Positions 1 through 50,682 of a stretch of DNA of 64,000 bases are shown here, one piece after another (position 1 is the stretch's first letter; each line of letters starts with the position of its first letter). The notes below the pieces were generated by a model, which did not search any database, was not told where the DNA came from, and was given only the letters and a program-made list of their open reading frames with translations. The translations under genes and the position numbers were made by a program. This DNA comes from Psammoneis japonica (lineage: Eukaryota): assembly GCA_008632985.1 (NCBI GenBank), contig QPGO01000036.1:124001-188000 (forward strand). The letters are read 5' to 3'.

Positions 1-16
1 TGGCCTCCGCACTTCC

Positions 17-1956
17 GTGCGCTTCGCGGACGAGGAGCAACTCTACGCCATAACCTCCTCCACTCCCCCAGTCGATCTCCTCGAACAAACTCTCTTCGAC
101 GACTCCCTCGCCATGGAATCTGCGTACAGCGCCTCCGTCAAATCTCCTTGGCCTGACTGCAATTGGCACAAATGCCCGGATCCTTTACAACAGGCCTTGG
201 AAGCCGTCCAGGCCACCTCTTCATTTCCCATTGATGACTGCTCACCCGTTCCCCGCTCTTTTCGAGCCATCCTCAGACAACCTCCTGCGATTCGCGACGC
301 CTGGCTTCGTGCCGTCCGATCTGAGCTCAAGAACCTCATCGTGGACAATGAAACCTTTGCTCTTCATGAATGTCCCGTCCAGACGATGAGATCATTGGCG
401 CCACACTTGCTCTACGTGCCAAGGAGAAATCCGACGGCTCTCTGGAGAAACTCAAGGCTCGACACTGTGCGCGCGGCGACATGCAACGCAAATCAGCCGA
501 TGACGACAATTGGTCACCAAACGCATCCTCTTGTGCCATCAAGCTCTTCCCAGCTTTTGCAGCAAAGGCCAAACGGCACGTCAAGAATGGTGATTTTGTT
601 GGTGCTTGCCTTCAAGCCCCCGCTCGCGGCCGCCTCTTTGTTCGATTCGACCCGATTCTGAAGCAACATTTTCCTGAATGTGCTGAATGTTTTGGTGTGC
701 CCCTTCGTCTCAAGAAAGGCATGTGCGGGACCATCCGCAGTGGTCTTTGGTGGTCCACCGAGCTCTCCGAATTTTTGCTTGCCCAAGGACACACCAATTC
801 CAAAGCAGATCCCACCTTCTTTGCCAAGCACTTCCCCGACGGCTCATGTCTCAAGCTCATTTTCTACACGGATGACATCATCTACTTTGGGTCTCACGAC
901 AGAGTCGAGAAGGACTTTGAGAACCTCACACGATCCAGGTGCAACATCACATTCAACAGTGACGTCACCTGGTTCTTGCAAATGTGCATCCACCGACATT
1001 CCGACGGCTCCTTCTCTCTCGACCAACATCGACATGTGCGCAATCTCCTCAAGCGGTTCCTTGCTCCCACCTCGCCTTGGGGCAGCCCCAGCTTTCAGGA
1101 TGCCCCAGCCCCCGTTGATTGTGTGTGCTCCAAAGCGAATCAACCCAAGGACGCCGCCGAATCCAAGCAAATCGCGAACAAGTATCCTGGTCTCCATTTT
1201 CGATCCGCTGTCTGCTCCATCCTTTATCTCGCCTGCAACACTCGCGCTGACATTCTCTGGATCACCTGCAAACTTGCAAAGGCTTGCACCAACCCTGGTG
1301 TGAAGGATTTTGATGCTCTCGTCCACCTTTTTGGCTGTCTCCGCAAACATCAAGACCTCGCCATCAAATTTTATTCTGATCCCACCGCGAGCCCTGTTCA
1401 CGCTATTTGCGAAGCTCACGACATCAGCCATTCTGAATTTGTGGTCTTCGCCGATGCCAGCTGGCAGGATTGTCCGGACACCGCCAAGTCAACCGTTGGA
1501 TTTATGGTCTACTTCAATGGGGCAACAGTGGAAGCCAATTCCACTGTCCCAACCCCTGTTGCAATGTCCACTGCCGAATCCGAGTGGATGGGTGCCTGCA
1601 CTGGCGCCATGGCTGTCGCTCACCTGCGCATGTTGGCCTGCGACTTCACCTTCCTTGGCACTCGCCACTGCTCCATTGACTCCCAGCGACTGTCCACTGC
1701 TCCCACAATCCTCATGTTGGACAACCAAGCCGCAGTCCAAATGGCCCAAAACGACCAACAAACTCGACGAACCCGACATGTTGAGCGACGCTTCCAATGT
1801 GTCCGCGAAGGGCAGCGACTCGGTCATCACTTGCTTGTTTGGGTTCCCGCGGAAAGTCAATTAGCGGACTGCCTCACCAAAACTCAATGTGCAGACAAAA
1901 TTTGGGTCATGGTCGACCGTGTCCTGTGGCGCCTACCTGCACACATGCTGTCATGA
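17..1956 (+). pseudogene. Copia pol (RT-RNase H), frameshifted near 370, with Tyr to Cys/His changes
   Basis: ORFs 17-661 and 370-1956 overlap in different frames. GACLQA, KKGMCG and FQCVREG correspond to the usual GAYLQA, KxIYG and YVRE motifs. Confidence 0.85.
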
Positions 1957-1993
1957 GCCCCTTCTCATCTTCCCTCATTCGGTTCAAGGGGGG

Positions 1994-2303
1994 TGACAGG
2001 GATCCCACATGACCCTTTTATATTGGAACCTCATGTTCGAAGATAGCATATATATTCAGTCGGGTTTATGACTGAAATTTACTGATCTTTCGGAGTGTTT
2101 CAACAACCTGTCGGAATCTATCCGTTCTGACAGCCATATCGATTCTGAGACTAGCTCAGAATCTCTCACAACTTCTAGACAAAGCATTATCGCAAGGTAC
2201 TGTTTCTAGATTAGGCTCTAGCTTACTCTCTCCTGTCAGTGCACGGACTTGATCACCCAAGACACTCTCAGGCGAGTACCCAGCTCTTACCCATTTCCTA
2301 TCA
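1994..2303 (+). repeat. Copia 3' LTR (probable)
   Basis: Starts TGACAGG right after the PPT and ends CCTATCA at 2303 (alternative end CCTGTCA at 2238). The 5' LTR is outside the window, so the end is unconfirmed. Confidence 0.7.
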
Positions 2304-6859: not shown

Positions 6860-7574
6860 ACGGCGTGGAGATTGAATATTAGAGAGTCTCTTCTTTCTGC
6901 TGTTGCTCTCAGTTGTTGTGCTGCATGTTGCATCTTCTATCTTCTATCTCGCTTGAGCGTCGCGAGCGTTGGCGATGAATAAGCGCGCCAAAAGTTTCTG
7001 TGGGGGCCTCGTACTGTACTACGGTGTCCTACAGCGTGATGCGCACAGTACCGGTAGGTGGGGGGGCACAGGACATGAGCTCTGCAAGACTTGCAGGGCA
7101 GTCAAGTCTCAATGTGGCTGTTCTGGGTGTCGCCACTTGCAAGGAGAATCGCAGGCGGGGGCGGACGAAAGTGCAAAATGTACATACTTCTAGAAACCAT
7201 TGCACAGACAGACCATCACCACTTCAACTCTCCTTGCAAGTGGTGACACCCAGGAGTTCTCCTGACACTCAGGGGCTTTGGCAACAACTCTTCTGGTGCA
7301 GTCATGACGACAGAAGGTTGGTTGCTCTCGACACCATTTTGGGCATTCTTGTTCATCTCAACAAGGTGCAAAACATGGGCCGCCAGCCTTGCACTCTCGG
7401 GATTGGCTGGTGTTGCACCATGGACAGAGAGAGTGCCTCTCTGCTGAGAGACGAGCCATGTGTTTTCTCGGTGATCATGCAGCCAGAGCAACAGAATCAG
7501 TGCAGCCAAACAGCATGAGAAGAGCAAGCATGGTGAGGGAGGCCATGCAACACAGATGTTCTTTGCAAGACAGA

Positions 7575-7780
7575 GGCCATCATTCTCAACATGCAAACAA
7601 GTCCAAGTTTTTCACAAAATTGAATGGCTGCATTGTCAAAGGCAAAGGCATGAAGACAGAGGGTGCCACACGAAGGATCCTTTTCAACCATGTCAATGCA
7701 TTTCTCAACCAGGATCATTGCCAAACCTGAGTGCCAAAATTCAGATCAGGGTCACAATGCATGGCAGCTTGTTGGTGCCA
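7575..7780 (-). pseudogene. Decayed NAA60-like GNAT N-acetyltransferase fragment inside a TpA-depleted island
   Basis: CIVTL...EFWHSGLAMILVEKC...CGTLCLHAFAFDNAAIQFCEKLG resembles YIMTL...G.A...LYLHV...N..AI.FYEKLG with Tyr to Cys changes. Stops and frameshifts on both sides. Confidence 0.7.
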
Positions 7781-8146
7781 TCTGTGGCTCCTTCCCGTGT
7801 CACCCAACATCACATCCCGAAAAAGTCGTGATGGCAAGACGTGCTGCTCTGACAGAGTCGGTGATGTCCGAATCAAGGTTGTGGCTTTGATCGACAAGCA
7901 CAGCCACCATGCGTTCATCATTGCATTGTGATCAAGTGGACAGTGGTGATGTGGTTTCTGCTTTATGTCGATGAATGGCAAGTGACGGCAGGACGATGCG
8001 TTCACAGCTTGTCGTTTTTGGCTGACAAACAGAGAAAATGAGAAACGGAAATGGTGTGCAAGAGTCGAGCCGCTCATCCAGAAATGCTAGGGCCCCTAAG
8101 TATGGCTTGATTGCCTATAATGTTTCCAACATCTTGTCTGAATGGA

Positions 8147-11916: not shown

Positions 11917-11996
11917 GCGTGGTGCATGAGTGCATGAGTATCTTCGCTGACTGACTCAATGTCGAGGCGATGACCGGATGACCGTTCGACAGGCAC

Positions 11997-12172
11997 TGCA
12001 AGCTCAAGCTGAGGTTGATGTCAAAACAAAGAAGTGAGTAGACCGAAGAGAGGGAGAGCCTAAGCGTCAGCGAGCGCTGGCGAGTGCTGGCGAGCCGCCT
12101 CTCAAACGGCTACGTTAATCCAATGTACAAAATTAATGCCACACATCAGAAGCGTGTGAGTGAGTTGCTGCG
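11997..12172 (-). repeat. Gypsy 3' LTR
   Basis: TGCAAGCTCAAGCTGAGG...GAGTTGCTGCG aligns with 17280-17453. Adjacent to the PPT. Confidence 0.92.
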
Positions 12173-12373
12173 CTCTTCCCTTCCATGATCCGAAAGAACT
12201 GGAGGATCATGCAAAGGGCCAAAACCAGGGACCAAAACCCAAAAAATCACAACAGCAGGAGGAAACCCAGGTGTTGGGAAGAAAACCCCCTGATCAACCA
12301 CGAAAAGGAATCAGGCGCCAAATGTTGAGGCGCTCAACCACATGAGGAGCTCGACGAAGCGAAGGCGTGCCAC

Positions 12374-15300
12374 TCACATGCACTTGAACAACAGGACAAG
12401 GGCCATGAGCACGAGGCTCAAGTCTGGACGGGTCAACCGACTTGATTGGAACTTGATCACCCACTTGACAATCGCAGGATCTTCTCTTGGCATTGGCTCT
12501 TCGGAATTGTCGTTGATCAGCGTCTGGCGATGGCCTTGGATCGTCAGCAAGTCTGCCAGCACAGGGACACCTAGGATCATGTCACGTCCAAACACCACAG
12601 CACCTGGTGAAGTCTGCAAAGAACGGGAAACAGCACAGCGAGTTGCACACATTGCAGTTGCCAAAGCATCGTCCACGAGGCCAGCTGCATCTTGAAGATT
12701 TTGAGGTGGGTTGGAAGCAATGAGCATGTGCAGTGTGTCACCGACGGTCTGGTGCATTCGTTCACAAATGGCATTGGCTTGAGGGTTGTACGAAGCAGTC
12801 GGCACATCATCAATTCCGGCTTGTTGCAACAGCATCTGAAAATCGTACCCGGTGAACTCGCCGCCGTCATTGTGGGTGCATCGATTCGGTCTGGGACAGC
12901 GTGCAAGCCAGCAGTTTTCAAATTGGTTGGCAACATGTCGGGCAGTTTTATTTTCAATTCTCACAAGTTCAACAACATTGGAGACAGGATCATGCAGGTC
13001 AATGCCCGAAACTCAATCTCTCCATTCGGCACCTTGATTTTCCACGGGCCAATGAGGTCAACCGCCACTTCCGACCAGGGAGTTAATGGAGCTTCTCGCT
13101 CGGGTGACTCTCCACAGCCAGGACCCAAAGTTTTGTTACGTTGGCAATCAGCACAAGAGTGTTCATCACACATGCAATGCAACCCAGGATGACAACAATG
13201 AGCCTGGATCGTTTCACGCATGCGCTGGCTTCCGGCATGGCCAAGGACGAGATGACACCACCGCAAGATGTCGGGCATGAGCGCAGTCGGCAAACAGATT
13301 TTCCACTGTCCTGGAGGATCATTCGGTCGCATGCAATGACACACAAGCGGTCGATCATTCACACATTCCACGAGGAAACGATCAGGGTGAGCAACGCGCA
13401 TCTGGTTCAACTGTTGGTCCTCGAACTGGTGCTCCTGAGTGCATTGTAACGTCATCGGATTCTGCATCTCTTGCATCGCAGGGCAATTCAAGAAAGAACC
13501 GAACAGTTCTGGCTCATCCACAAAGAAAGAGAAGAAGTGTGAGTGGCCTTCATTTTCAATGTTGCAACAACACTTAAATTGGCATGCGCCGAGCTCCAAG
13601 TCCTCATCGCGGAAATCCTCGACTTGGATGGTTCCTCACTCGGCACCAACTTCGAATCGAGCGGAGCAAAATCAACAACAGTTCCTTCACCCGGAGCCAA
13701 GCTCTTCCCTTCAGAGGGAGGATCCACACGAGGTAAACGAGAAAAACAATCAGCCAAGACATTCAATCGGCCTTCAATGCAATGAAACTGAGGAGAAAAG
13801 TCTTCCAGAAAGAGTCGCCAACGAAGTGCGCGCTGTGAATTCAAGGTGCGAAAGGCAAGGTTCTTGTGGTCAGTGAATGCATGCAAGTCGCCGCCAAGGA
13901 GCATCGATCGGTGTTCTCGGAAGCACATGACAATGGCCAACAGTTCTTTTTTGATCGTTGAATGGTTTTGTTGCGCCGCACTGAGCTTTCGAGACCAGCA
14001 TGCAACAGGCTTTCCATCCTGTACAATCACTGCGCCCATCTGGCAATCACTTGCATCGGTGCAGATGTGGAAGGGTTTGTTGTGATTCGGATGTGCCATT
14101 GATGTTTCGGCTGCTGGGACTGCTTTCATCTCATCGAACGCCGCCTGACATTCCGTTGTCCATGTCCATGAGCCTTTGCCTGTAAGATCTGTCAAGGGTT
14201 TCAACAGGTGAGAACGCCGAGGCCACACATTGCGACAATGCGTTGCAGCGCCAAGGAACGAACGAAGCTGCTTGATGTTTTCCGGAGGTTGCATTCGCAG
14301 GACAGCCTCCACCTTTTTCTTCCACGGACGAGTTCCAGTCGGAGTTAGCCAATGCCCAAGGAAATCCGTTTCCTGCACACACCATTCGCATTTCAAGGGA
14401 TTTACTTTGAACCCAGCTTCTTCCAAGCGTTGCAAGAGTTTGTCAAGACGGTCAAGGTGAATGTCAAAGTCGTCATCAAATTGAGCGAGATCATCAATGT
14501 GTGCGTCAACGTCCAAGTCGTGCACAGTTTTCTCAATCAAATGTTGCGCAACATCTGGAGCCGGCTTCAGACCCATTGCCAAACGGCAGCATCGGCACTT
14601 TCCAAAGGGTGTCACGATTGTCGTCAAGTCCTTGGAATCGTCATCCAATTCGAACACACAGTGCATCATTGAGAGGTCCAATTTGGTCAAAAACTTGCAC
14701 CCAGCTCTCTTCTGCAGCACATCTTGAATGATCGGTAAAGGATGAACCTTGCGCTTGAGGGCTTTGTTGAGTTCCCGAAAATCGCTGAGCCACCGCACTC
14801 GACCATCCTTCTTCGGCCGAATAAAAGCACCAGCAGCCCACTCCGTTGTTCCGGCTTCTTCAAGAACGCCAAGAGCCACCAAATGATCCAGTTCTTGTTT
14901 GAAAGTCTCGAGATCATTGTGCGGTGCTGCACGCGCTCGAGAATGGCAAGGAACAGTGTTGAGATCAACATCAAGGTGAACTTTTTCGCCAGCATGCTTG
15001 CCGAGAGTGCCGTCAAAAAGAGCAGTGTGTTTTTCCAATGCGAGGCGCAATTTTTCTTGTTGTTCGGTGGTGAGATGCTTCTGAGCCGATGCCACTTCAG
15101 AAGGGGACGTCTCCTCATACTTTGCATCGAGGATGCAGCTGTCCCACACATCATCATCGTTGGCCAGCTCATCAGTCAAGTCGTCAAGCCACTGCTGGGT
15201 GCCAATCCGATGGTTTCTTGGTTTCATTGCAATGCTTGAATTGAGCCACTTGACAATTCCGTGTTTGAAATCTAACGTGACACCTGCTCTCGCCAAGAAG

Positions 15301-15782
15301 TCCTGTCCAAGGATCACATTGCACTGGCAAGGTGAGTCAAACACATGCGCATGCATGCCATCAACACATTTGGTCTTGTCAAATTCAGGGAGCACCACAT
15401 CCTGCAGTCGAACGTAACGAGTGGATTTGAATTCTCCTGCCAACATCCGAAACTTTGCAACAATTGGTCCTGTGTCCTCCAATGCTGGCACCGCTCCAAC
15501 TGGCAACACCCGAGCATGAATCATTGAATGGGTTCCACCAGAGTCAAGTGACACCCGCAGCACGTGCTTGCTTTCCTTGTCTTGAATGAATTGCGCCGCG
15601 AATGAGGTTGCAGGGACCACATTTAAAGGTTTGGTTGGTTTTGTTTTTGGGGTTGGCACAGCGCACTCAAGTCCCACATCGTCTTCGTCATTCACAATGC
15701 AATTTTCGAAATCGTCATCATCAAACAAATCAGCAGCATGTGCACGACAATCATCAACGCAGTCAGTGCAGTCATCAAACAT
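12374..15782 (-). pseudogene. Gypsy pol (protease, RT, RNase H, integrase), frameshifted
   Basis: LDSGG protease. RT motifs PKKDGRVRW, DFRELN, HIDD. RNase H TDASD, KELLAIV, TDHKNL. Integrase HHCC and DLIGPW/DGGEF/ERMH. Split over ORFs 13488-15782, 12961-13599 and 12374-12964. Confidence 0.93.
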
Positions 15783-15839
15783 GTGGGAATCAGGAGCGAC
15801 ACACTCGGACGACAGCTCTTCAAGCTCATTGGGTCAGCG

Positions 15840-17068
15840 TCAACCGCATCCCGAGAAGCGACCACCAGGTCGAAAACTTCCCGCTCCACCTCGATGCTCA
15901 CGAGGCTCTCCCACAGAATCAAGATGATGGCTTTCAGCAGACCAATCATTGGGAGGAGCCATTCTGGCCGGATTGCCGCAACCGCCGCCATCTGCATTGG
16001 TTCGGGTGTCGTTTTGACATTGCATGCAGGAGCCACCATCTTCATGATGCTCGCCGCCATTGCCGCCAGAGTTGCAGTTTCCTTGACCGCCACAATTTTC
16101 TCGGCCACCACCATGACCTTGATGGCCATGGCCTTGCCAACCACGACCTTGATTTCCGCCATGGCCACAACCTCCACCGCGACCGCCACCTCGACCACCA
16201 CGGCCACCATGTCCACGACCGCCACGATCAGTTCTTGGACGGCAGTTGTTGGAGTCGGGGTTCATGACGCAATCTTTCCACTTGTGATTGTGAGTGTGCA
16301 ACGGACATTGGGATTCTGGGTCAACACGATTGCCTTTCTTCTTATTCGAGCGCCTTCATTCTGTCCATCTTTGTGCTTTTTCGACGTCTTCTTGTTCCCA
16401 TCCGCAAACGATTTCTCCGTGCTCATGTGCGTGACCATTTCTGCCAGTGCATCATTTCCAATCGTGCATCCTGCTCTTGTGTGCATCTCACGCCACGACA
16501 GAGGGAAGCTGTCGAAAATCATCTTCTTCTTTTGGTTCTGAGCAACAACTGGATTATTTCCCGGCAACTTGTTTGTGCATCGCACCAAAGTTTCCATTCG
16601 ATCTGCGTGTGCCTGCACTTCAACGTCATGCGGCTTTTTAAGTGCAAGCAAGTGTTCAATCATCGTGTCACGAGCTTCAGTTTCACAATGCGACAAATAA
16701 AAATGAGCCAACTCTTGGTCAAAATGAGCTGCCGTCTTCTGCGCATCCGGAATCGCCATGGTGAGATTGGACCATTTGTCTTCAGCTGCATCCGTCAACA
16801 CTTCTTCAAAATTGTCAAACAATTCTTCTCCTGTGGTGAACTCGAGTTTTGCAGCCAGTTTACGAAAACGATCTTCCACAAACAACAACGCTTCAATTCC
16901 ATCACTTCCGTCAAAACAAGGGCACTTTTTCGTACGCGTGCTTCCATCATCATGCGATTGAGTCAATTTTACGAGTTCCAAATCCGAGTGAGCAAATTTC
17001 GCAGCATGCAAAATGCATGGTTCCTCAAGGCTCTCGCGATTGCTCATCAGGCCAAGTTGGTCCACCAA
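15840..17068 (-). pseudogene. Gypsy gag-like ORF with Gly/Arg-rich C-terminal region
   Basis: CFDGSDGIEALL...FEEVL.D.A...W gag-like ORF 16262-17068, frameshifted into HKWKDC and RGG repeats. Lies between the 5' LTR and pol. Confidence 0.75.
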
Positions 17069-17279
17069 GAAACTGTTTTAAGTGCTCTACCTTCGATTCG
17101 AGTTGTGCCACTCAAATCGCCAAATCCTGTTTGCGTTGTTTTCGTGTCTCCTTTTCTTGTTTTTGTTCCAAAGCCTAGTTCGCTGCCTTTGCTCTCAAAG
17201 TTCTTTTCTCTTGTTTTGCAAGCCTGTCAATTGTGTCGTCATTTCTCATTCAGCTCTTTACAATCGACTGCAACTGCAG

Positions 17280-17453
17280 TGCAAGCTCAAGCTGAGGTTG
17301 ATGTCAAAACAAAAAAGTGAGTGGACCGAAGAGAGGGAGAGCCCAAGCGTCAGCGAGCGCTGGTGAGTGCTGGCGAGCCCTCTCAAATGGCTGTGTTCAT
17401 CTGACATCCAAAATTAACACCACACATCAGAAGCGTGCGAGTGAGTTGCTGCA
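17280..17453 (-). repeat. Gypsy 5' LTR
   Basis: Direct repeat of 11997-12172 with TG...CA ends. The plus-strand left edge could extend to 17275. Confidence 0.92.
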
Positions 17454-17601
17454 GGTGCAACACAGTGGCTGAAACCCAAACAATTGACATCATTTTGTCG
17501 GTCATTTTCAAAAATGTTGTGTGCCTCCAAACATGCTCATTGGAACTGTCAACCACATCACACCATCAGTGAATGAACACTGGTCTGAAGCTTCTTGCAT
17601 G

Positions 17602-17843
17602 AAAAAAGTCATTTGTGGAACCGGGCGCACTGTGTTCATCAACAAGGGCAATGAAAGACAGTGGTGACAACATCAGAGCGCGCATTCTGGTGATCAAGGG
17701 TGTCTTTCTCATGGCAAATTTTAAAAAAGTTGTTTGTGGAACCGGGCGCACTGTGCTCATCAACAAGGGCAATGAAAGACAGTGGTGGCAACATCAGAGC
17801 ACACATTCTGGTGATCAAGGGCATCTTTCTCATGGCAATTTTT
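17602..17843. repeat. Tandem duplication, 2 x 121 bp
   Basis: AAAAAAGT..TTTGTGGAACCGGGCGCACTGTG...TCTTTCTCATGGCAA starts at 17602 and 17723. Confidence 0.9.
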
Positions 17844-20090
17844 TTTGTGCTGTGGCAGGACACCAGATGTGCACATGGTGATTTTTTGTTGTCCACGGCA
17901 GTTGTCATTTTTTTTGCTGTGGCAACCCTGCCATCGCCGCGGGAATTTCTTCATCCATGAGATCCTCCCTTGTTCTGGCGCCTCTTTTCACAAACTCCAG
18001 ATTGCTGCAAAAAGTCAAAAATTGCAGTCATTTGCAAATTGGCATGTTTTGCTTTGATGCCCAGCATCGTTGAAAATGATGAAAGCTGCGCATTGCAAAT
18101 TAATTTCATCGGTGGTTGCTGTTTTGCTGCTTGCATTGCTTTGGCCAGGCATGGCCAAGAATGGCTCTCCTGCACCACATCTTTTTCTCCGCCTTCATCA
18201 TCCCCGCCGCTGGCAATGCTGTCTTCATCATCGTCCTCCATTTCTCCTCCTTTGCTCCTGTTCGCCACATCGTCCTCATCATCACTCGACAGCTCAATCA
18301 TTGCTTGCATCCTCTTCACCATCTTTGGCAGCTTTTTCTCCTTGGCTCCACTCTTGTTGCTCTTGTTGCAGTTTTTTTCCTTCTTGTCTTCCATGTGACC
18401 TGTGTCGAGCTGCATGCCTTTTTCACTCACCCTGTCATCTTGCACTTCTCCACGCAGCTCGTTGCATTCTGGGACTGCTGGGATGTTCTTGGAGTTGTCG
18501 GCAGGGCAGCATCCATGTTTGGGGCCTTTGGGCAGTTGCTGCACTGTGCAAAAAAAGAAGAACAACCAGCGCAATTCCCCACAGGACAAAAATCCGACGT
18601 GGGATTCTGTGCCAGGGCTGTGTGAAAATGACTCAATGTCTCTCAAACATTTCCAACTTGACTGACAGGCAGCCTGAGCCACGAAAAAAAGAAGAAAAAG
18701 CCAACTCCAAACTGCCAGTTGTTGTTGCATTGTGTGTGCATTTTGCAGCAAGGCAACGTGTGAAATCTAGAAGTGCCACATGTCAATTGCTGCCTGTGCA
18801 GCAAGAAGTGTGCTTTGTCACCCTCGCCGCACTGTTGAGAAAAAAATGTTCGAACCAAATTGTCTGGAGGCACTTGATTGTGTCAAGACAGGTGAAAAAT
18901 CATGGACAAACCACATTGCATGTGATGTTGTTTCAACCAGAGATTCTTTTGACATTTCAGCTGGACTTTTGAGGAATGTGATTGGGTTGGGTGTCTGTCA
19001 TCATTGTCATCATCGTCCCCCACTCATTTTCAGCATCTCTTTTGAACTTTTTGTGGATTTTGATCCACCAAATGGCTGTCTGTTCAATGATGTGAGTCAG
19101 CCGGGGTGGGGCCAGTTGGCTGCGCACATTTGGGTTTGATGTGACTGTGCAACTGGCCACACCCTGCAGGAAAAGCTGTTGGTGGTGCGCGAGCAGAAGC
19201 AACATCAAAGCAAAAAACACAGTGTGGGTCAAAATGTTGTAAAGTGATGCGAGAATGAGCAATGAGGAGAAACCCAACTTTGCCCAGGAAAGAAGCACAT
19301 CAATGTGTTGCCCAATCACTTTGATCTTGTCTGAAAATGCTTGCTCACAGATCATGAACGGCATTTGCGTCATTGCTTGCCATGGCATTGTTGTGTGGTG
19401 TCATGCGCTGTTGTTGTGCGCGAAGGACGGGGTTCTGTTTTACCCACAGTGAATCTGTTTTGGTCACAGCAGATGTTTCACCATGCCCAACTTGAAGACA
19501 TTTTGAGAAGCGCTTCGCAACAACTCTGTTCACACCGTTGAACATTAAAATTTTTTTGTGCAGATTCCGCAGCTGTTTTGGGGTGTTCTGTTGGACTTTT
19601 GAGTTGCCACATGCGCATTGCAAGATTCAGAAACTTCAATGACATGTGATGTCCCAAGAGACACACACAAATTTATCTTCCCTGCAGACCTTGTAGAATG
19701 TGTGCCAACGAAAATCCACTGCCTGTCAACTCACTCAGCAGCATTCCACGTGCATTCTACTTGCACCTCACACACGCACACACACCTGCACAGTCTGATG
19801 ATGCCAGAGACAGAGTCAACCGCATCAGGCGCAGCAGGCAGCAGCGGGGAGTTGCCTCAAAGTTGTTGAAACTGTGACTCAAATTGAAATGATGCACTCT
19901 TCAATTGCTTCACAAAACTTTGCAATGTCTGCATTGCGACACTGTTGGTGAATTGGACTGCACAAAATTTGGCCTGTTGCCCATCAAACATGTGAGCAAT
20001 GAACAATTGCACTCTGCAAACAAGTGGGCTCATTTGCACAGCTTTGTGGCTTTCGACAACAAGAAAGTCATCGCAGTGTGTTTGTCACCA

Positions 20091-20225
20091 AACAACTTTC
20101 AACAACTTTTTGTTGAAAGTGGACAACTTTCAACACTTTAGAAAGACGCAACTTTCAACAACTTTTTGTTGAAAGATGCAACTTTCAACAACTTTTTGTT
20201 GAAAGACGCAACTTCCAACAACTTC
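20091..20225. repeat. ~30 bp tandem array of hairpin-forming units
   Basis: Unit CAACTTTCAACAACTTTTTGTTGAAAGA(T/C)G contains inverted arms CTTTCAACA/TGTTGAAAG. Confidence 0.85.
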
Positions 20226-20971
20226 AACAGAAAACTCACCGGCACAAAAATCTGATTGGAAAAGCGACATCATCTGAGACAAGTGCACATGCATGACCGA
20301 CATTCATCATTGATGCAGCATTGGTGCCATTCGATTCTCAGTGGCGGTGCTGTCACCAACATTGTCACTTCTAAGTCCTTTGTTGATTTTAATGAGATGT
20401 GATGTGTTGAGCCATGTCCACACCTTGGTGTGACTGATGAAGTTGCTCATGACTTGGCGCTTTCATCTGAGGATGAAACCACCTGAGATGCAGCATGCTG
20501 GGACCCAGACTCAGAATGGCAGATGGGATTGCTGGGCTCAGAGGATGGAGCAGCCGATGGTTTGGTGCTGGGATGATTCTCACTTGGAGCTGCAGACAGC
20601 GCCTGACGATGCACTGGGTGAGATTGGAGGCAGATCACTGCCAGGTGGGAGCTTTGCTTGGTGTGAAGCACATTAGATGGTGGCTCACTTGGAGCCATTG
20701 AAGGTGCTCCACTGCTGGCAGATTTCAAGAAATTGACAATTCTGAAACTGCTGCAGCCAAAAATTCTGAAACTGCGCCACAAATTGTCAAACTGCTTCCA
20801 CCAAAAACCACCAAACCAGTGCTGAACTGCTGAGCCAACTTCACGCTGCTCTTTTGGGCTTTGGCAAGGTGTGCATTGCTTGTGCTGTTCTCATCACGAT
20901 CTTTGACTTTTGTGTCACCCCACTGCAGTGCAACCCTAAATGAGAACAATGTTTTTGCACGTGTCGATGTG

Positions 20972-21108
20972 GTTTTTGTTACAAAAGTGTAACTTTGAAC
21001 AGATTTTTGTTAAAAGATGTAACTTTGAACAGATTTTTGTTGAAAGATCTAACTTTCAACATCTTTTTTGTTGAAAGATCTAACTTTCAACAACTTTTTG
21101 TTGAAAGT
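20972..21108. repeat. Second ~30 bp hairpin tandem array of the same family
   Basis: Units TAACTTT(G/C)AACA..TTTTTGTT(A/G)AAAGAT repeated about 4 times. Confidence 0.85.
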
Positions 21109-21416
21109 CAGTTGTCCGTTGAGTTGTGACCATAAACTCAACATGCAACATGTGTTGCTGAATGTTTTCATGCAAGGAAAGAGCAATTTCAATGTCTTCA
21201 ATGGACATGCGTTGCAGCGTGCAAAAATGTCCATTTCACCAGAGTGAGTTGTCAGCGGGAATCAGATGCACCATGCCTGCATGCATGAGCGTGACGGGAC
21301 AACTTCAACTTTTAACAGATTTGAGGCGACTCCCAGCAGCAGCAACAGACAACAACAACGATGGCAGTGGAAACATCAGCAGGGACGTTCACGACAAGGA
21401 TGCCGGCAGAGATGCC

Positions 21417-23434
21417 ATGAACCAATTGATGGCAAATGTCTCATTGGCACCAACGACACCACCAGGACAACAAAAGAAGTCGACGACCGGCACTGGGACC
21501 AAGAAGAAGCCACGGAGGAGTCGATCCAGTTCCCGCCCGAGTGCTCTGGCAGCGACAAAAAAGAAAGGTCAGAGATCCACATCAATGCCGCCATCGTCAA
21601 AGCTGAAGCAATTGAAAAACAACTCAGAAACAATGGTGAGCAGCCACTGTTCACGGACGGAACATCATTGACATTGCATTGAACGATTCACTTCCCTCAC
21701 TTGTCTTTCCTCTTTTTTTTCTTTGATGTCTGCGTCCGAACCACAGGCTTCAGACCTTGCTGTTGAGGAGTTGCTTGGCCTGTCATCATCTGAGGCCGAC
21801 GCCCTTGGACGGCAAGAGATCATTGGCCAGCTGGTGATGCACCGTGACAGCATCCTCAACACCTCCATGCTCTGGTCTGGTGACAAGGTGTGCAAGCAGA
21901 TCACTCTAAAGATTCGCTGTCTGAAAATGTGCGTTCTGCAGAAGGCTGGGACTGTTCAGCATGGCGCCGGAGAGGCCCCCGCAAACATTTGCTGTGGGAA
22001 GTGGTCCAAGGACAAGGACAAGATCCGGAATCTTGTGTTCCAGCCTGAACCATTTTTGGGGTGCAATTTTGCAATGCACGGGGGTGAGATTGTGCAGGTG
22101 CTGGCAGAAATTCCGACGGAAGAAGACGCCAGAGCCACCCTTGGTGATGAACGTTTCAAGTTTCACAAAGGCGGAACTGTCAAGTGTCGGCACTGCTGTC
22201 CGCGGGACCTCAAGAACAATGCCGAGCTGAAGAACAAGATCACTCACATCATCGGAAAAGGATTTTGTCACCGGGACGATGAAGACCCAGAGTTCTCATT
22301 CAACGATGCGTGCATCACCCACAACTTGTTGTGCAAGCACAAGAGTGCGTCCCATGCGATCACAGTTGAGCTTGTCACTGATGAAATGGGGCCACACGGG
22401 ATCATGTGATGAAGATGTGTCACTTGGTTGGGGTTGTTCTTTTGATGGACGACATTCAGGCACACAAGAAGGAGATCCAACAAGGTCATCCCGACAAGAT
22501 TCAACAGGTCTGCCAGAAGAATTTCAGGGTCTTCAACTTAGTCCAGATCACCATTCTGAAGGAATGCTCGCACCAACGGTTGGGTTCTGTTGTGATGGAA
22601 GCTGTTGAACATGCCTTGAAGGCATTGGCAAATCCAGCCGACCACAAAGTGCCACCTGCCAGTTTCTTATTCTGGGTTGGTTGTGCCAAGAGTTTCTACA
22701 AACGTCTTGGTTGTTCTGCCAATCCAGGCTCTGATGGGGTCCCCGATGCTTGGCGAAATGTGTTTGAGTGTCCTGTGAAGCTTTCCAAATGGAAGGATGG
22801 CCAAGTTCAGGACATGACGGATCAAGAAAACCAAGAGATTTTCTTCTGCAAGTCATTCACCTGCACCAATCGGAACAAGTTTGGTGACCTTCAAAATTGG
22901 TGTCAAGATGATCCTGCCCGTCAACATCTCACTGTCACACACAGGGTTGGAGTGTTGAAGGAATGCTGCAACTTTGGTCTCAGCCGTGGCAAGCGTGCTG
23001 AGACAAAATCCATCAAAAATCTGGGGCACATTGAGGAATTCCCAACTGTTCATGATCATCGCACGGTTTGCGGTGTCACTGAAATCGATGTTGACATCAA
23101 ACAGCACACAGCTGCAAATGTCAACAGTCATGTCGAATGCAAGTGTGAGTTTGTCAAGAATTTTGTCTTCATCTGTGGCCAACGGACTGACGATGGTGGG
23201 AGGGACTTTGGGTTCAACCTCAACATCAAGGTGGCTGCTGAAGTCAAGGCGGAACACATCATCCACCATGGCCACACGCAGAATGGATTGACAGTGTCTG
23301 TCTGCGGCGACATCGTCAAGGGTGGCAACACCGCCATGCTGATCCAACTTAAATTGCCTTGGTTCAACTCGAAGGAAAGAATGAAAGTTGATCGGGATTG
23401 GCCTGCTGTTGGTCGTAAGATGGTGGAGAAATGA
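21417..23434 (+). pseudogene. TpA-mutated intron-containing gene with a GNAT acetyltransferase-like domain
   Basis: In-frame GT-AG intron 21636-21746 with a pyrimidine tract joins ORFs 21162-21671 and 21723-22409. Frameshift near 22406. Then LVGVVLL...LVQITILKECSHQRLGSVVM...AKSFYKRLGC (GNAT motif A and FYxxLG). Start uncertain. Confidence 0.6.
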
Positions 23435-26307
23435 GTCGTTGATTGCATCTTCAATTTGGTTGATCAGGCTGTGTTGGTTGCTTGGCAAAGAACAGAATTG
23501 TCGATTGCTTCTTCAATTGAGTGCAACAAATCACAATGAATCGGCCATGGTGACAGTGATGGAATGATGGGTGTCAGTCTGATGGGTCGATTGCAGCCTG
23601 CAATTTGAACTGGGAACTGGCACAAATGCAGGATGCAAAAGAAATGCATGTGTGGAATTCATTTGCATGGAGCCAGAGGGCAGCTGACACACATCGGATG
23701 GACGGTCGGTTGGTTGATCGCTGTGTGTTTGTGGGTGGGTGTTTGAAATGGTTGTTGAAAGTGACATGAACAGCAAGGAATGTTGCTTGCATCCATGGGG
23801 CACAGATTTTCATCTAAAGCTGATTGTTGATTGGAAACTTGCCCCATGACGAATGCACATTAGACTGATGTGTGTTCTCTGTTGTGTTGCTGCTCTCCGA
23901 AGCAGCATTGAACAACAACCACGCATTGACAAGACAACTCCCAAGTCTCAATTTGCATTCGTCAATTGTTGTTAGATTCGAATTTTGTTGGAGAAAGTTG
24001 AGATGCAAATGCATTGCACTGAGATGGTCCGCCAATGCCCAAATCAAAAAGAGGTGGAAGATTCCACTGCTGGCACCACCGCACCATCACTGCTCCAGCC
24101 AACAGTGCAACACACATTTTCAAAAACAAAATGTCTGACAAACAATCCCATTCTTCTTTTGCGTCATACATTGTTGATGCTGTCCCAACCATGTCGCAGC
24201 ATGTGGCATTGGTGACTTTCCACCCGACCGCAAACACACACACATGCACGTGCAAAACACAGAGAGATCAGAAAGAAAAGACAACAAGACATTGTGCACT
24301 TCATTTTTGACAATGTAGATGCTGACAAAAAACTTCTGATGGCGGCAACGTTGCCAGATGGTGGTGAAGGACACTCGTGTGCAGGATTTGTTGTCATTGA
24401 GATGATGACTTGAGACAAGACATCGGTGGACTGATCTTGCTGATCAGTGAAAAAGATGTCAATGGAATCACACTCGATTGGATCAAGGCAAACCATGTTG
24501 ATTGAAGGTTGTGGCAATGGGACGAGCAGCTGCTTGCATCACATTGTCACCCGACCTTCAAATTGACCAACAGCGAACACTGGACAAACATGGATGTGGC
24601 GCAATCCAACCAAGCCATCCTTGAACAACAGTGCATTGACATGATGACACCCCAAGTCTTGATGCGTGTGTCAATCTTCATTGACGTCAAATGAAGCAGA
24701 ACCAGAGATGGCCATGCACCAGCAAGATGGTCACAGGCAGCTGTGAACAAGGTGAAAGATTTCAACACAACCAGCTGCAGCCAGCATGCAGCCAAAAAAA
24801 AACCTTGTCCGGCAACAACAACAGCACCGTCACAAACATTTCCCTCTCGTCAAATGACATCCCGTCGGTGTGTTGATTCCGCACTGACAACTGGGATTGC
24901 TGTCACGTTAAAGGTTGTCTGCACATCAGACAACCCCCTGACACCAGAGTCCGGCAATTTTTTTATGTTTGTGGCTGGCCAAAGGAAAAGGGAAAAAAGG
25001 AGGGGATTCAACCTTTCGATGCATGCAAAAATTGACCATGCAGCAGGGCCAGAGATTCATTGGCTTCTTCTTTGTGGTCTGGGGTGGTTGCTGCAGGGGC
25101 AAAAGCTGGGTGCACATTGCAACTTCAGGGTGACTGTCAGCTCAAAGGCTGCATCAGGGGAGGGCCAGGGAGAAGAAAAACATGCAAGCTTGGCTGCTTG
25201 CTTTTCAAACCCTGGTGTGTTGGTCATGAGCAAGCTTTCGAGAGAAGAGTGAGAGAGGTTCTGGCTGCATTGCCATGCAGAGAGTCTTGTTGCTGGCACA
25301 TCTCAGGTTGTGTGTTCAGCATGCTCAATGGCTCTTGGGCCCAACAACCTCACTCAGAGCTTTTTTGTGCCAGCAACAAGCTCAAAGTTGTCTTGCTGTG
25401 CTGACAAATGACAAATGAGCTTGAGGAGGCTTGTCTGCAATTTTGCAGCTGTGACATGGGGGCACCAATGACATGAGCTCCTGCCAGCTCCAGCCTTGGC
25501 TCAGGGCTTTTACAACACTGGTGTCTCTTGCTCAACTGCAGAAAAGAGCTGTGGCATGTGAGGTCAGGCAGCCCAGGAGCCAGGCTGTCTGCACTCCTTT
25601 TGCAGATGGAACAAAGGGCCATCATGACTGCACAATGAGGGCAATTTGTGTGGTTGTGCTGGTGTTCTGAAGGTCTGGGTGTGCCCCTGGGAAGCTGCAC
25701 ATGAAGAACTCAGCATTGCCACCAGCACCATGAGTGCATTGCCGCCCTGCTCTGGGAGCCTGCAAACTCAAGTTTGGTGTCTCAGCTGGCATCGTTTTTG
25801 TGCACGATTTGGGTCGCATGTGGCTGGAACAGGTCATTCGTGTGCCAACAAGCCTCAAGCTGTGGGTCATGAAAAAGCCACCAACCTCCCAACCAGCTGC
25901 AGAGCCAGCCAAACCATGCCACTTGAGGGTCCAAGGTTCAAAACAAGAGGGTTGCATCAACTCTCTTCTTGTTTTGTGTGCTCAAGAGCCTTTTGTTCTC
26001 TCTGCAAGTCTTGTTTGGTGTGTGCTCACTTCTGTTGAGTTTGGATTGAAGAAAGGAGGCTGCAAGTTCCAGATGGGTTGATTTGCCTTTGCTGCAAAAG
26101 GTGTGCATTGTCCATTTTGATTGGACGCCCATGCAGAGATCTGAAAACCAGCATTGTTGCAAGCATTGAATGCAGAGAGAGAAAACCAATTGACATTTTG
26201 AAATGAACATGCAAATGCTTGGCAGCTGGCGCAGAAATGAAAAGATGATTTCGAATTTGACATCCTGTTTTGTCCATTCGATTTTGCTCATGCCCAAAAC
26301 TCTGCAT

Positions 26308-26428
26308 CGTTGACCATTTGGCTGTCTTTGTACCAAAGCAGAAATTTTAATTGGGGGATGTTGTCAACCATTTGGCTGTCTTTGTGCCGAAGCAGAAATT
26401 TTAATCAGGGAATGTCGTCAGCCATTTT
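26308..26428. repeat. 54 bp tandem repeat (about 2.2 copies)
   Basis: (TG/CA)ACCATTTGGCTGTCTTTGT..C.AAGCAGAAATTTTAAT at 26311 and 26365, partial copy at 26419. Confidence 0.85.
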
Positions 26429-27683
26429 TGGCTTGCTTTGGCTTGAAGTCATTTTTGTTGATGTGGGTTGTGGGCTTGTTGTTAACTGGCCATGATCCTG
26501 CTGAAATCTTTGCCAGAGTCCCTCCCTTTTTCTGCACACACTTGCTTGAACCGGCAACCCGGAAATGGGTTGAGGTCAGTGCGGTGGTTGCTTTACGAGG
26601 TCGCCCCACCTGCACTCGACACACCCGACAAACACTCAGACAAACAAACCAGCAAACCCAAAAAACAAACCTGCACAAGGCAGCTGCAAAGCAACTCACA
26701 CTGGGGCCCCTGTTGAGCACAGCACTCAACTTGGACAACTGATGGGGCACTGCTCCTCAGCCAGCCACGATGTTTTGGGCTGAGTTGCCACCCACATTTT
26801 TCCTTCCTGCGTGACTTGGTTGCCGGTCAGAGCCCACTGTCTCTCTCTCCCTACAGTTTTGCACTTCTCCACCTGCCAAAAGTCTGTGAGAGGGGCCCTG
26901 GCAGTGCCAGCTGGCAATCATTGAGCTGTGTTGCACTGCATCTCATTGACAACAGTCGCGCTGCATTTTTTTGCATGTGGTGTTGCATCGTCAGCTGCTT
27001 GCTGGGTTTTGCAGTGTTGGCTGAAACAATGTGACTTTTTTAGCATGCGCAGCTGGCAGAGCTGGCACACACAATGTCATTCTTTCAATGGGTGTCAACC
27101 AAGTGACTTGAGCCCAGTTTTCTCTTTTTTCAAAGCACAACTTTTGCCGCCAGCCAGGGAGGCATGGGGGGGAAATGAAGCAGCAGTGTGGTCACCAAAA
27201 AGTGCCGCCGTGCATGTGCAGGATTTCTAAAATGTCTTTTGGATTTTTGAAAGTGCACAAAGGGCATTTAGAAATGCCACCACGAAAACTTGTTCAACTG
27301 CCCTGTGTTGCTGGTGCCCCCTTGAGCACACAAACCCAGCTGCAAACAGCAGAGCAGCACACACACCCCGGTGCAAGCAACCATTGCAAGCACAAGCAGC
27401 ACATGAGCAAATTGTTCACACAAACATGTTTTCGTTGAGGCTCAAGCAAAAACCACAGGGATGCACAGTCAAGCCCAAACAAGACGCAGGACTCTGTCGA
27501 AGCCCTCCGAGTGTCTCCCGTCCTTGCGTCGTCCGATGCCTCTTCCTCGATCTGCTCCGATCTCCGCCGATCGATAATCTTGAAGATTCATTCTTGATGC
27601 GTTGGCGTTGACGTTGACGCGGGTATGGACATTGATAGATGCATGCATCGGCATCGCAAAAGAAATAATAAACGAATCACTGT

Positions 27684-40138: not shown

Positions 40139-40699
40139 AATGCTGTGAATGGCTACAAGAGTGTGCTTGATTGCAACAAGTTGGTGCTAAATAGCAAAAA
40201 TGCGCTTCTCGTCACCACAACGCTCAAAGGCACCATCATGGGGTTGGGGGGAAACTGCCATGCCGGTGCCGGTGCTGTACACCCTCTACGTGCGCGTGAG
40301 GAGGGGGGGGCAGACGCGGAGCAACGGTCGTGCCTGAGTAGAGTCATGCAGGCAGGAAAAGGGATGGATTTCGAATTGGGGTTGGAGAGTTGGGATTGTA
40401 GTTTGGCAGAGTAGCGGGTCAGTTAGTCAGCGAGCGATTTGGTGATCGCAAGGCTCAGGCTTTGAAGGCCCCATTGTGATGGAGCAGAAGTGGTGTGGTG
40501 GGTCAGACCGAAGCATCAGGTGGATGTGTTTTGCCAAGCGGCCGTGGCAGTGGGTGGAATGGCAGATGGTGACAGTTGGGCACAGGTGCACGTGGCATGG
40601 GCAGCTGGGTGTTGAAAGGAGGATTGGCACATCAAAGCTCGGGCCATCGAAGACAACACCGATCCGCAATCTTTCCAGCCCACCAGCATCTCCAAAAGT

Positions 40700-41700
40700 G
40701 GAGCCCCCAAGCACAATGTGCCCAGAGTGCCCATGCTGTGACACATGGTCTCCGCCAGAAAATTCTGCCACCCAAGACCTTCCCAAGGCAGTTCAAGCTC
40801 ACCTGCGTGCAGAGCATAAAAAACCAGACCTCCAATTTCTCCCACAAGACTTTCTTTCCCAAGCCAACCTCTGCACTCCTGCCAGCACATGTGCAACTCC
40901 ACCCAACACCTGGGCCTCTGCGCGCCCCGGCAACCTGCACAACCACCTTTTGCCCACCACAACCCAGCCCACACTGACACCAACTCAGCCCTTGCAGCTG
41001 CACACCTGTCTCATGGCATGCCTGGCCCACAACAATGCAGTTGCTCGCTGCTCTCGAAGTTGCACCTCCGCCGTTTCGCGCATCCACACATCACAAGCTC
41101 TCTCCCTCCACATGACATGAAGCATTTGTCACCCTGCACCACATCCTCACCTGGATCATTGAATCCACTGAGCCCCTGCACCTTGACCCTGACAACCTGG
41201 CTCCACCCCATGAGTGCACATCTCCCTCTTCTGGAAACTGCTGCTTCTCTTTGAAGCCATCATCCTTGCCCCACCTTGCCGCTCCCCTGCCGCCAACACC
41301 AAGAGACACCCATTGGCTTCCTCCGTTGCCTCAACTCACCTTAAACTCTTCCAACAAGGCTGCATCCATGAGCTGCACAACATCACATGCACCACTCCCT
41401 CCCACTCTGCTCCCACTGCCCATGCACTCGACTTCTCTGCCTCCACCTGCCACCTGCTGCCACACGGCTCAAGCATCCTCTGATGCTGACAACTTCAGCA
41501 CTGCTTGCTGTTGCATCACCTTCAATCTTCCAGTCACCACCATTGATGACACCCGCCTTCACCTTGTCCATGCATCATGCCCACCATGCGCCCCACACCC
41601 GCCGCGGGCATCTGCTTCTAACGCACGACACCCTGTGCCAAAACCATGACCACCGTGCATCTCTGATGATCATTTCCTCACTGCCCCCAGCAAATGCAAG
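40700..41700 (+). mobile_element. Decayed non-LTR retrotransposon-like ORF fragment (Zn finger and pre-RT region)
   Basis: CPxC...HLRAEH, FWKLLLLFEAIILAP...LKLFQQGCIHELH and ADNFSTA...PVTTID across shifted frames resemble CRE/Ambal-type ORFs (recognition from memory). TpA-depleted. Confidence 0.45.
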
Positions 41701-42531
41701 CCTGGCACTCATCTTTGGCGTGGTCCTCAAGCAACTCAATGCTGGACTTTGCCAATGCCTCCCTTCCTCCAATGTCATGCTCACACTGCCTCCCTCATTG
41801 ACGACACTGGCATCTCGCTCCTGCACACTGAATTGCCATGGTTCCTTCAATGCCCCGGGCCCAAAGTGACGGTCATGCCAAATGAGCTTGCAAAAAATGC
41901 AACAGCAAAAACAAGTGACATCACCAAAGTTTGAGGCATTGAATGATGATGACATGCACAGCATCACACCTCGTCACACTTGAGACAATGCATGCATCAC
42001 AGAAGATTCCACCAAGCAGCAGTGACGTGGAATTCCCATTGAATTTTGAAATTGTTCACGTGCAAATCCAACCACATGCACTCGGTTCTTTGTCTGTTGA
42101 GTCGCTCTCCATGATCCATTGGTGCTTTCTCTCACTGCTTGTGGCTTCTGACAAGCAACAAGAGAGAGAGTCATCATGTCATCGTCGCTGCACAGTGCTG
42201 CAACAGATTGAGTTGTTCTGACAAGGCCGCCGTCGTGTTGGCACATGCTTGTGAGGAAATGCAGGCTTTCTTGCCTGGTGCTCACAATGTGATGAAGATT
42301 CTTGAATCAAAGAAGAACAACAAGGGCCAGCAAACATGTGAGAAGAAAATGGTGGAAGAACAGAAGAGGAATCTCTGGCAACTGCTTTGCAGCACACAAT
42401 TTCCAGTTCTGGCATTCAGGTTCATGGGCAGTGCGTCAGGTGGCACCTTCAATGTTGTCAGTGGTTCTGGTGTCACTGTCAAAGGTGGTGAGAATTTCAG
42501 GTTGGGAGAACCCTCATCGTAGACACAGCAA

Positions 42532-50680: not shown

Positions 50681-50682
50681 GA

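Follow-up and report, generated by a model that had tools for sequence, protein, structure and literature searches.

Within a 64,000-nucleotide stretch of the diatom Psammoneis japonica (contig QPGO01000036.1, positions 124,001 to 188,000; here called the window) lies a dead Ty3/gypsy long terminal repeat (LTR) retrotransposon of approximately 5.46 kb, on the minus strand at about 11997-17453. In this element, and in further blocks of repeats within the window, the dinucleotide TA has almost disappeared and has been replaced by TG or CA. The pattern is best read as a domain-targeted DNA hypermutation that converts A:T to G:C specifically at TpA, probably by deamination of adenine, together with ordinary CpG decay, and the probability of this reading is estimated at roughly 0.8. 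A sequence-only reading made earlier had described the systematic replacement of tyrosine (Tyr) by cysteine (Cys) or histidine (His) in the pol gene of the gypsy element. The replacement is real, but it is specific neither to pol nor to tyrosine. Instead, it forms part of a near-total loss of TpA that spans about 28 kb of repeat blocks and includes non-coding DNA.

The open frame for protease, reverse transcriptase (RT) and RNase H possesses, as that reading had stated, only two Tyr in 764 amino acids; over all 781 codons from stop to stop there are likewise 2 Tyr, with 27 Cys and 35 His. When 5.8 billion proteins were searched, the frame yielded 453 relatives at E <=0.001 among 7960 scored candidates, and in 120 listed relatives the median Tyr content is 3.61%, with a minimum of 0.80% (P0032) and a next lowest value of 2.56%. 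The frame was aligned with 60 relatives, from which P0032 was excluded because it is Tyr-poor itself, and columns were called conserved at 70% or more. Among 348 such columns 277 are kept and 71 changed, and only one of the 18 conserved Tyr columns still reads Tyr (9 Cys, 7 His, 1 Arg). A second count, based on 45 full-length relatives with two integrase pieces handled separately, left one of 21 Tyr columns intact: 20 are replaced, by Cys in 12, by His in 7 and by Arg in 1. Among the 442 other columns, 53 are replaced and 389 kept (Fisher p 1.4e-16). In the integrase, all four conserved Tyr columns are replaced. The proposal to count replacements by Cys and His against all others has thus been carried out: these two residues make up 19 of the 20 Tyr replacements, and the changes are strongly concentrated on Tyr rather than spread evenly over the residues. 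Relatives with a normal Tyr content have Tyr at these columns, so the direction of change is from Tyr to Cys or His, as had been supposed; 116 of 120 and 147 of 150 relatives keep normal Tyr.

Compared with ten relatives, the frame reads KVHPLP for KVYPLP, GCKF for GYK[FY], MMHC for MMYY, AHIDD for VYIDD, ICTDASDCQ for IYTDASDYQ, VACWS for VAYWS and QNH for QNY. The His of HIDD is encoded by CAC at 14499-14501, exactly as first read. Most of the nine motifs that had been listed as damaged hold up. LGHW does not, being a natural variant present in five of the nine normal-Tyr relatives in the alignment. GKCRC stands in part: its second Cys lies in a column that is mostly Tyr, while the column of the first is mostly Phe, with Tyr in two relatives.

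The codons behind the 71 changed columns also indicate which dinucleotide was hit. There are 14 single TA>TG changes, 14 single TA>CA changes and one codon with both (Tyr>Arg, CGT), so that TA>TG/CA by itself accounts for 29 of the 71; the remainder comprises 7 CpG-type changes, 6 other transitions, 18 transversions and 11 further multi-step changes. The earlier conclusion that both strands were hit, drawn from the occurrence of both TAY to TGY and TAY to CAY, is thereby confirmed. Five of seven Val>Ala replacements are GCA, as expected from GTA, and both Leu>Ser replacements are TCA, as expected from TTA. Double hits are rare (1-2 in 21 Tyr codons). The presence of both outcomes on the sense strand together with the rarity of double hits fits the dinucleotide as the target, because TG no longer reads TA on the partner strand. 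Moreover, TA>TG/CA yields TGA only from an in-frame TAA, so the process cannot make stops. Inactivation by missense rather than by new stops, as had been claimed, is correct in this respect. However, at least three frame changes also break the element, and missense is therefore not the sole lesion. With HIDD in place of YIDD and these frame changes, the element lacks both an intact YxDD and a continuous pol frame and is a dead member of its family.

The loss of TA extends well beyond the gypsy element. Profiles at 2 kb and 500 bp resolve blocks of 0.76, 2, 2.5, 9.7 and 15 kb with TpA observed/expected (obs/exp) ratios of at most 0.18 and TG and CA ratios of 1.3-1.97; the exact cut-offs of the preprint on Bigelowiella that is discussed below were not applied. 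Pooled over the blocks (28,532 bp), TA occurs 4.03 times per kb, compared with 38.9 in host DNA (33,193 bp), and TG and CA together occur 213.6 versus 147.0 times per kb. This gain of 66.6 per kb matches the combined loss of TA (34.9) and CG (32.5), which amounts to 67.4. The GC content is 48.6% in the blocks and 47.9% in host DNA. For TpA, the obs/exp ratio is 0.08 within the pol frame and 0.10 across 12300-17400, compared with 0.5-0.67 in the rest of the window, which is host DNA, and the edges of the blocks are sharp both at 500-bp resolution and at that of single sites. The blocks contain gypsy, copia, non-coding DNA and other repeats, and the host genes named by Pfam all lie outside them. 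The copia frame at 370-1956, which is cut by the window start, encodes 528 amino acids with 6 Tyr, 24 Cys and 22 His, so the signature is present in a second superfamily besides gypsy.

Unlike the loss of TA, which is saturated throughout, the loss of CpG is graded. In the continuous domain that includes the gypsy element, CpG obs/exp is about 0.8 (0.83) in the element and 0.27-0.58 beyond it, and at 46-53 kb it falls to 0.03-0.19. In the latter region, two copies of a unit of about 4.5-5 kb contain 0-4 TA and 0-4 CG per 500 bp. This gradation indicates that the TA process is the faster one. The depletion also reaches the stop codons: from host DNA to blocks, TAA declines from 8.4 to 2.1 and TAG from 8.2 to 0.8 per kb of strand (16.7 to 2.8 in sum), which is the reason for the many long frames on all six phases. 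In the TA-poor DNA other than the gypsy and copia elements (about 22 kb), a Pfam search of 77 open reading frames (ORFs) of at least 110 amino acids, those in 17450-27600 among them, gave no family except one sub-threshold PT repeat.

The TAs that remain are mostly TTAA, which points to a preference of the process for particular flanks. Survival was expressed as surviving TA relative to host DNA by context, the pooled values being computed from counts. It is 0.65 for TTAA, 0.29 for CTAA/TTAG, 0.14 for GTAA/TTAC, 0.10 for ATAA/TTAT, 0.06 for GTAC and CTAG, 0.01-0.02 for GTAT/ATAC and CTAT/ATAG, and 0 for ATAT (0 of 88). The enrichment of TTAA among the survivors has a p of 6.5e-13. One rate for each base at the second position 5' of the A that is hit (A > G ~ C >> T) reproduces all ten classes, as a matter of arithmetic rather than as a fitted model. 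With related loci as the baseline, 3 ATAN are left of about 72 expected and 13 TTAN of about 69. The Tyr codons agree with the flank rule, albeit in small numbers: TAT went mostly to CAT (5:2) and TAC mostly to TGC (7:2).

The two LTRs, which flank the element in direct orientation, date the changes. Of their 177 aligned positions, 160 are identical, and most of the 17 differences (13) exchange one of TA, CG, TG and CA for another, leaving 4 that are non-signature. The LTR adjoining the P450 gene keeps six TAs in ordinary contexts (12039, 12061, 12111, 12116, 12126 and 12134), while the inner LTR keeps one, which places the edge of the domain about 150 bp inside the element. Similarly, between the two diverged copies at 45852-50549 and 51032-55356, CA versus TG is the commonest dinucleotide difference (126 times), the outcome of independent hits on a single ancestral palindromic dinucleotide. 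Together, the differences between the LTRs at signature sites and the CA/TG differences between the copies indicate that the changes were made after integration, in the chromosome and on both strands. A rough estimate from these end states, 20 of 21 TA lost against 4 non-signature LTR differences in 177 positions, would put the TA process at least about 100-fold over background.

Two smaller differences were seen next to the element. The pentamers that flank it, GGCAC (11992-11996) and GGTGC (17454-17458), form a putative 5-bp target-site duplication; they differ by precisely one CA/TG pair and are equal only if that pair came from a single TA or CG. In the host flank, the sole difference from a long contig of a public DNA run is at 11940, 57 bp outside the LTR, where the window has A (TA) and the contig G (TG).

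Relatives of the element indicate that its state is derived. All 78 related metagenome loci have an ordinary TpA obs/exp of 0.39-0.94, compared with 0.08-0.10 in the window. A search of 1.84 billion proteins, summarized by 150 representatives, yielded three proteins (P0366, P0399 and P0414) with 0-0.46% Tyr, the next value being 1.97%. Together with P0032 they form a group of four whose identity, both among themselves and to the window, is 47-59%. Where Tyr columns are shared, the choice between Cys and His agrees at 4 of 14, 3 of 7 and 4 of 8 columns, and for P0032 at 9 of 12. Agreement about half the time points to separate hypermutation events. These four Tyr-poor ghost pol proteins already sit in public protein collections; gene callers accept such proteins because TAA and TAG have been erased.

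On the reading favoured here, the gypsy element and every other repeat block in the window were hit at the DNA level after integration, and TpA became TpG or CpA. The underlying change is a transition from A:T to G:C that affects the A of 5'-TA-3' in either strand. Since the first hit destroys the dinucleotide, no TA can be hit a second time, and a TAY codon turns into TGY (Cys) or CAY (His) but hardly ever into CGY. The domains affected are whole stretches of chromosome with sharp edges, and the process halts about 150 bp inside the element beside the host gene. It prefers ATA over GTA and CTA, largely spares TTAA, and comes near saturation well ahead of ordinary divergence or CpG decay. No stops are created, and the erasure of TAA and TAG leaves long open ghost frames with many missense changes. 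The sequence data show the signature with its direction, strands, timing, domain limits and flank bias, whereas the chemistry, the targeting and the purpose are inferred. The loss of CpG in the older blocks would represent a second, slower process, most simply the deamination of 5-methylcytosine. By analogy with the proposal for Bigelowiella natans (Mettrop et al., bioRxiv 10.64898/2026.01.13.699255), an ADAT/TadA-like deaminase may be the enzyme at work, turning adenine in DNA into hypoxanthine. The one-hit logic, the flank rule and the Bigelowiella precedent favour an enzyme. The natural substrate of ADAT/TadA is A34, which follows the invariant U33 of tRNA, and this would explain the preference for TpA. 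Targeting may proceed via silenced or repeated chromatin, and the purpose may be genome defence.

Several observations weigh against this reading. The evidence consists of end states, and no de novo event was observed. The context preferences were measured against host DNA or distant relatives in place of the ancestor. Furthermore, none of the 78 metagenome relatives is TA-erased, and the process is therefore not general in the hosts of the gypsy family. On the sense strand, TG exceeds CA in both oriented elements (obs/exp 1.62 vs 1.30 in gypsy, 12172-17275; 1.53 vs 1.35 in copia, 370-1956), an excess that a purely symmetric double-strand process does not predict. When 46 intact relatives serve as an ancestral proxy, the gain is in TG only; this conflicts with the split of the Tyr codons and was not relied on. 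That split is 12:7 (p 0.36). The excess may be linked to transcription, with an A>G bias on the non-template strand, or may reflect a poor ancestral proxy. Lastly, the 40 best-supported differences from other copies of the gypsy family, seen in contigs of the public DNA run (X1), comprise 19 CpG-type, 6 TA-type and 15 other differences, so that those of CpG type outnumber those at TA; two adjacent pairs among these 40 are TG/CA doubles. Other results from the run speak for the reading. They show the family to be highly repeated: 2186 contig pieces map on the element, and the summed word depth of the contigs is about 2500-3700 on the element compared with 58 on the flank. Of 388 variable places, 350 are transitions, with the four kinds nearly equal.

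An origin in thymine chemistry is a live though rather unlikely alternative, and it would leave the same marks. A TET/JBP-type oxidase could convert the T in TpA into 5-hydroxymethyl- or 5-formyluracil, and mispairing with G or error-prone repair would then give T>C on either strand. Dinoflagellates carry 5-hydroxymethyluracil in their DNA, with a preference for TpA and TpC, and 5-formyluracil is able to pair with G. Because the complement of TA is again TA, T>C at the T of TpA is indistinguishable from A>G at its A on the opposite strand, and the conserved columns, LTRs, composition and codons fit this explanation equally well. In contrast, the only experimental precedent, as presented in the preprint's main text, reads the signature as adenine deamination, also without proof.

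It is very improbable that the changes were made before integration, either by ADAR-like A-to-I editing of retrotransposon RNA or by deamination of cDNA during reverse transcription. Sense A>G does seem to exceed T>C, as seen in the TG and CA ratios of the gypsy element, and the A content is 24.8% compared with 30.2% in relatives. A 5' U is also favoured by ADARs, according to the main text of the Bigelowiella preprint (bioRxiv 10.64898/2026.01.13.699255). Nevertheless, T>C on the sense strand is common, accounting for 7 His and for half (14 of 28) of the single TA hits; the two LTRs are no longer alike at TA sites, and the one at the domain edge is spared. The loss of TA also continues through 10 kb of adjoining unrelated repeats and is found in the 764-bp fragment and the two old copies. 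The LTR, copy and strand data thus argue against RNA or cDNA editing as the main cause, and the LTR and domain data largely refute ADAR-like editing as the sole cause. ADARs, moreover, are animal proteins.

Slightly less credible still is an artefact of assembly or base-calling, in which modified bases in silenced DNA (5-methylcytosine at CpG, modified A or T at TpA) were misread as TG or CA. The affected dinucleotides are those where miscalls at methylated sites would give transitions, and the blocks resemble methylated heterochromatin. However, a strand-specific miscall predicts mixed calls and not a clean choice between TG and CA, with only one or two double hits in 21 Tyr codons. The four Tyr-poor proteins come from other records and have the same pattern with different Cys/His choices, and frame changes and ordinary divergence accompany the pattern. 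Contigs of the public DNA run contain a fraction of 0.54 of the 31-mers, with 444 pieces at >=99%, a weak argument in that the run may be the source of the assembly.

Inherited composition or selection, whereby the lineage and the other repeats avoid TA, for instance as an escape from a nuclease that cuts at TA or from RNA decay directed at UpA, is extremely improbable: TpA is indeed under-represented throughout the window, even in host DNA, but the destruction of catalytic and invariant Tyr (YIDD to HIDD) is incompatible with selection on a working element, the LTRs were identical at insertion and now differ at TA sites, and TA content is ordinary in the 78 related loci, so that for the gypsy element the loss of catalytic residues and the LTR differences refute it. 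GC-biased gene conversion was considered and dropped; there is no general shift from AT to GC, and the specificity for dinucleotide and flank is strict.

The gypsy element has the order LTR, gag, protease, RT, RNase H, integrase, LTR, and its parts are listed in the table with the other TA-poor features.

Table. Coordinates of the gypsy element, its parts and the TA-poor blocks of the window
Feature	Position	Strand	Description
TA-poor copia block	1..2018	+	RT/RNase H frame 370-1956, Pfam RVT_2; TpA obs/exp 0.13
TA-free stretch	7200..7963		764 bp, CA/TG-rich, between Siva-like gene and Trp/Tyr permease gene
3' LTR in element sense	11997..12172	-	direct repeat with 17280-17453; adjoins host P450 gene; 6 TA kept
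Continuous TA-poor domain	12135..27500		gypsy element and ~10 kb of unidentified repeats; TpA obs/exp 0.04-0.18
Integrase region	12300..13659	-	three frames; tblastn with relative P0001; Pfam Integrase_H2C2 slightly under cut-off
Protease-RT-RNase H open frame	13488..15833	-	781 codons stop-to-stop; 764 aa from Met at 15782
Gly/Arg-rich linker between gag and pol	15840..16355	-	Cys/His knuckle-like stretch; 0 Tyr
gag open frame	16262..17077	-	271 aa, 1 Tyr; resembles ORF upstream of pol in related loci
5' LTR in sense	17280..17453	-	inside TA-poor domain; 1 TA kept
TA-poor block	40425..42975		TpA obs/exp 0.14, CpG 0.44 in 40001-42000
TA- and CpG-poor block	45614..55358		two diverged copies 45852-50549, 51032-55356, 70.8% identical

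In the pol frame, Pfam recognizes RVT_1 and both RT-RNase H domains, and the protease motif LDSGG is present in the alignment with relatives. Below about 13659 the frame is an out-of-frame read-through. Four tblastn segments of P0001 lie in different frames, which gives the frame changes counted above; those of the integrase are 13608-12991, 13051-12506 and 12512-12300, with changes of frame near 12506-12512, 12991-13051 and 13608-13659. By tblastn, the linker between gag and pol weakly matches two related loci (E 1e-4). The best cited match of gag is a related locus (L072) with 48% identity (E 4e-73), and a Pfam search of the gag frame gave no family. Six gypsy relatives found no second gypsy copy within the window by tblastn.

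The contigs of the public run stand out at two places. The summed contig depth is 123 at 13546-13739, in the linker between RNase H and integrase, compared with about 2500 on both sides, and this linker seems to be private to this copy or subfamily. Additionally, one contig of the run joins both LTRs (12136 to 17427), omitting 5290 bases with 9 other letters between. It could be a solo-LTR or recombined form that is present elsewhere or in some cells.

The TA-poor domain also contains tandem repeats, namely 2 x 121 nt at 17602-17843, 2 x 54 nt at 26313-26420, and several 30-nt units in two clusters at 20108-21126, and some of the few leftover TAs fall in them. The TA-free stretch at 7200-7963 is probably a small hypermutated repeat fragment. 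The TA-normal parts of the window consist of long, intron-poor host frames, including a plastid-type gyrA, the Trp/Tyr permease, P450, subtilases, a peroxidase and Ysc84. The named relatives of the permease are all from diatoms (51-58% identity; the best unnamed match is 64%), and those of gyrA are from diatoms at 71-78%, with one record labelled dinoflagellate. No protein in the collection matched at 100%; the host genes thus place the window in a diatom whose proteome has not been deposited, and not in Bigelowiella. The gene for DNA gyrase A (27977-30650, plus strand) is split into three long frames by short gaps, probably small introns, and starts about 400 bp past the end of the TA-poor domain.

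Among the known systems, repeat-induced point mutation (RIP) of ascomycete fungi also hypermutates repeated and mobile chromosomal DNA by transitions, with a dinucleotide preference, on both strands and to saturation, leaving dead copies. In contrast, RIP, which acts premeiotically and depends on duplication, converts C to T at CpA, which yields TpA, raises TpA and AT content, and creates stops. In the diatom blocks TpA is depleted 10-fold, CA is enriched, GC is about level and stops are erased. Thus, the process works like RIP but is not RIP. APOBEC3 (C>U in cDNA) and ADAR (A>I in double-stranded RNA, with a favoured 5' U) likewise represent deaminase-driven hypermutation that inactivates retroelements, in animals. 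They act before integration and mark one strand; in the window, hits fall on both strands, the two LTRs are not alike, and nearby DNA other than retroelements carries the signature. Deamination of 5-methylcytosine, through which CpG decays, likewise produces TG and CA, and the older blocks show it (CpG obs/exp 0.03-0.58). However, it cannot explain the loss of Tyr or TA, since the gypsy element has a CpG ratio of 0.83 while that of TpA is 0.09.

The closest parallel is the chlorarachniophyte Bigelowiella natans, the subject of the only report found in a literature search that yielded none of TpA hypermutation in diatoms. According to the main text of that preprint, mutation-accumulation lines gathered 231 mutations in an integrated giant virus and virophage; 230 of them were A>G or T>C, and every one of these fell on TpA (Mettrop et al., bioRxiv 10.64898/2026.01.13.699255). 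The Bigelowiella process is further characterized by new mutations that appear in living lines at a rate about 1000-fold that of the background. The same text describes 124 genomic clusters that are TpA-poor and rich in CpA and TpG, reports that low-TpA genes are enriched in reverse-transcriptase and DDE domains, and proposes an ADAT2-like deaminase as the enzyme (bioRxiv 10.64898/2026.01.13.699255). As far as this text goes, the two cases share transitions confined to TpA that give TpG or CpA by strand, windows poor in TpA and rich in CpA and TpG, and mobile or foreign DNA as the target. They differ in that the host there belongs to the Rhizaria and carries viral inserts, while here a diatom (Stramenopila) carries LTR retrotransposons and unidentified repeats. 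Likewise, the nucleocytoplasmic large DNA virus region of Bigelowiella has a TpA obs/exp of 0.45, compared with 0.02-0.18, near saturation, in the window, where CpG loss also accompanies TA loss in the older blocks. In Bigelowiella the mutations were seen directly in the lines, whereas the diatom case is read from end states. The preprint's main text makes no mention of diatom, CpG, retrotransposon, LTR, context or flank; the sparing of TTAA, the either/or outcome of the Tyr codons and the spared edge LTR were found here and not in the text searched.

Programmed chromosomal hypermutation of A:T to G:C was, as far as that source indicates, not known before the 2026 Bigelowiella preprint. With a second host, the process ceases to be the peculiarity of one species and becomes a candidate for a widespread defence in major marine primary producers, and the TTAA-sparing rule, the one-hit-per-TA logic and the domain edges about one nucleosome inside the element are testable properties. 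For annotation, TA-erased repeats without TAA and TAG give long false ORFs in all six frames. The observations also point to a natural DNA adenine deaminase, an activity that is known mainly from a laboratory-evolved enzyme. More tentatively, and with somewhat less than even confidence, diatoms may carry an inverse-RIP genome defence in which adenine is deaminated in TpA across silenced mobile-element domains (ATA > GTA/CTA >> TTA), killing transposons by missense and without stops and implying such a natural deaminase. Since the TpA signature also occurs in a chlorarachniophyte, this system would be either ancient in the Stramenopila-Alveolata-Rhizaria (SAR) supergroup or repeatedly evolved. 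Overall, the retrotransposons of this diatom provide a new case, at saturation, of a kind of hypermutation that, on the evidence of the preprint's main text, has been described once, in an unrelated alga.

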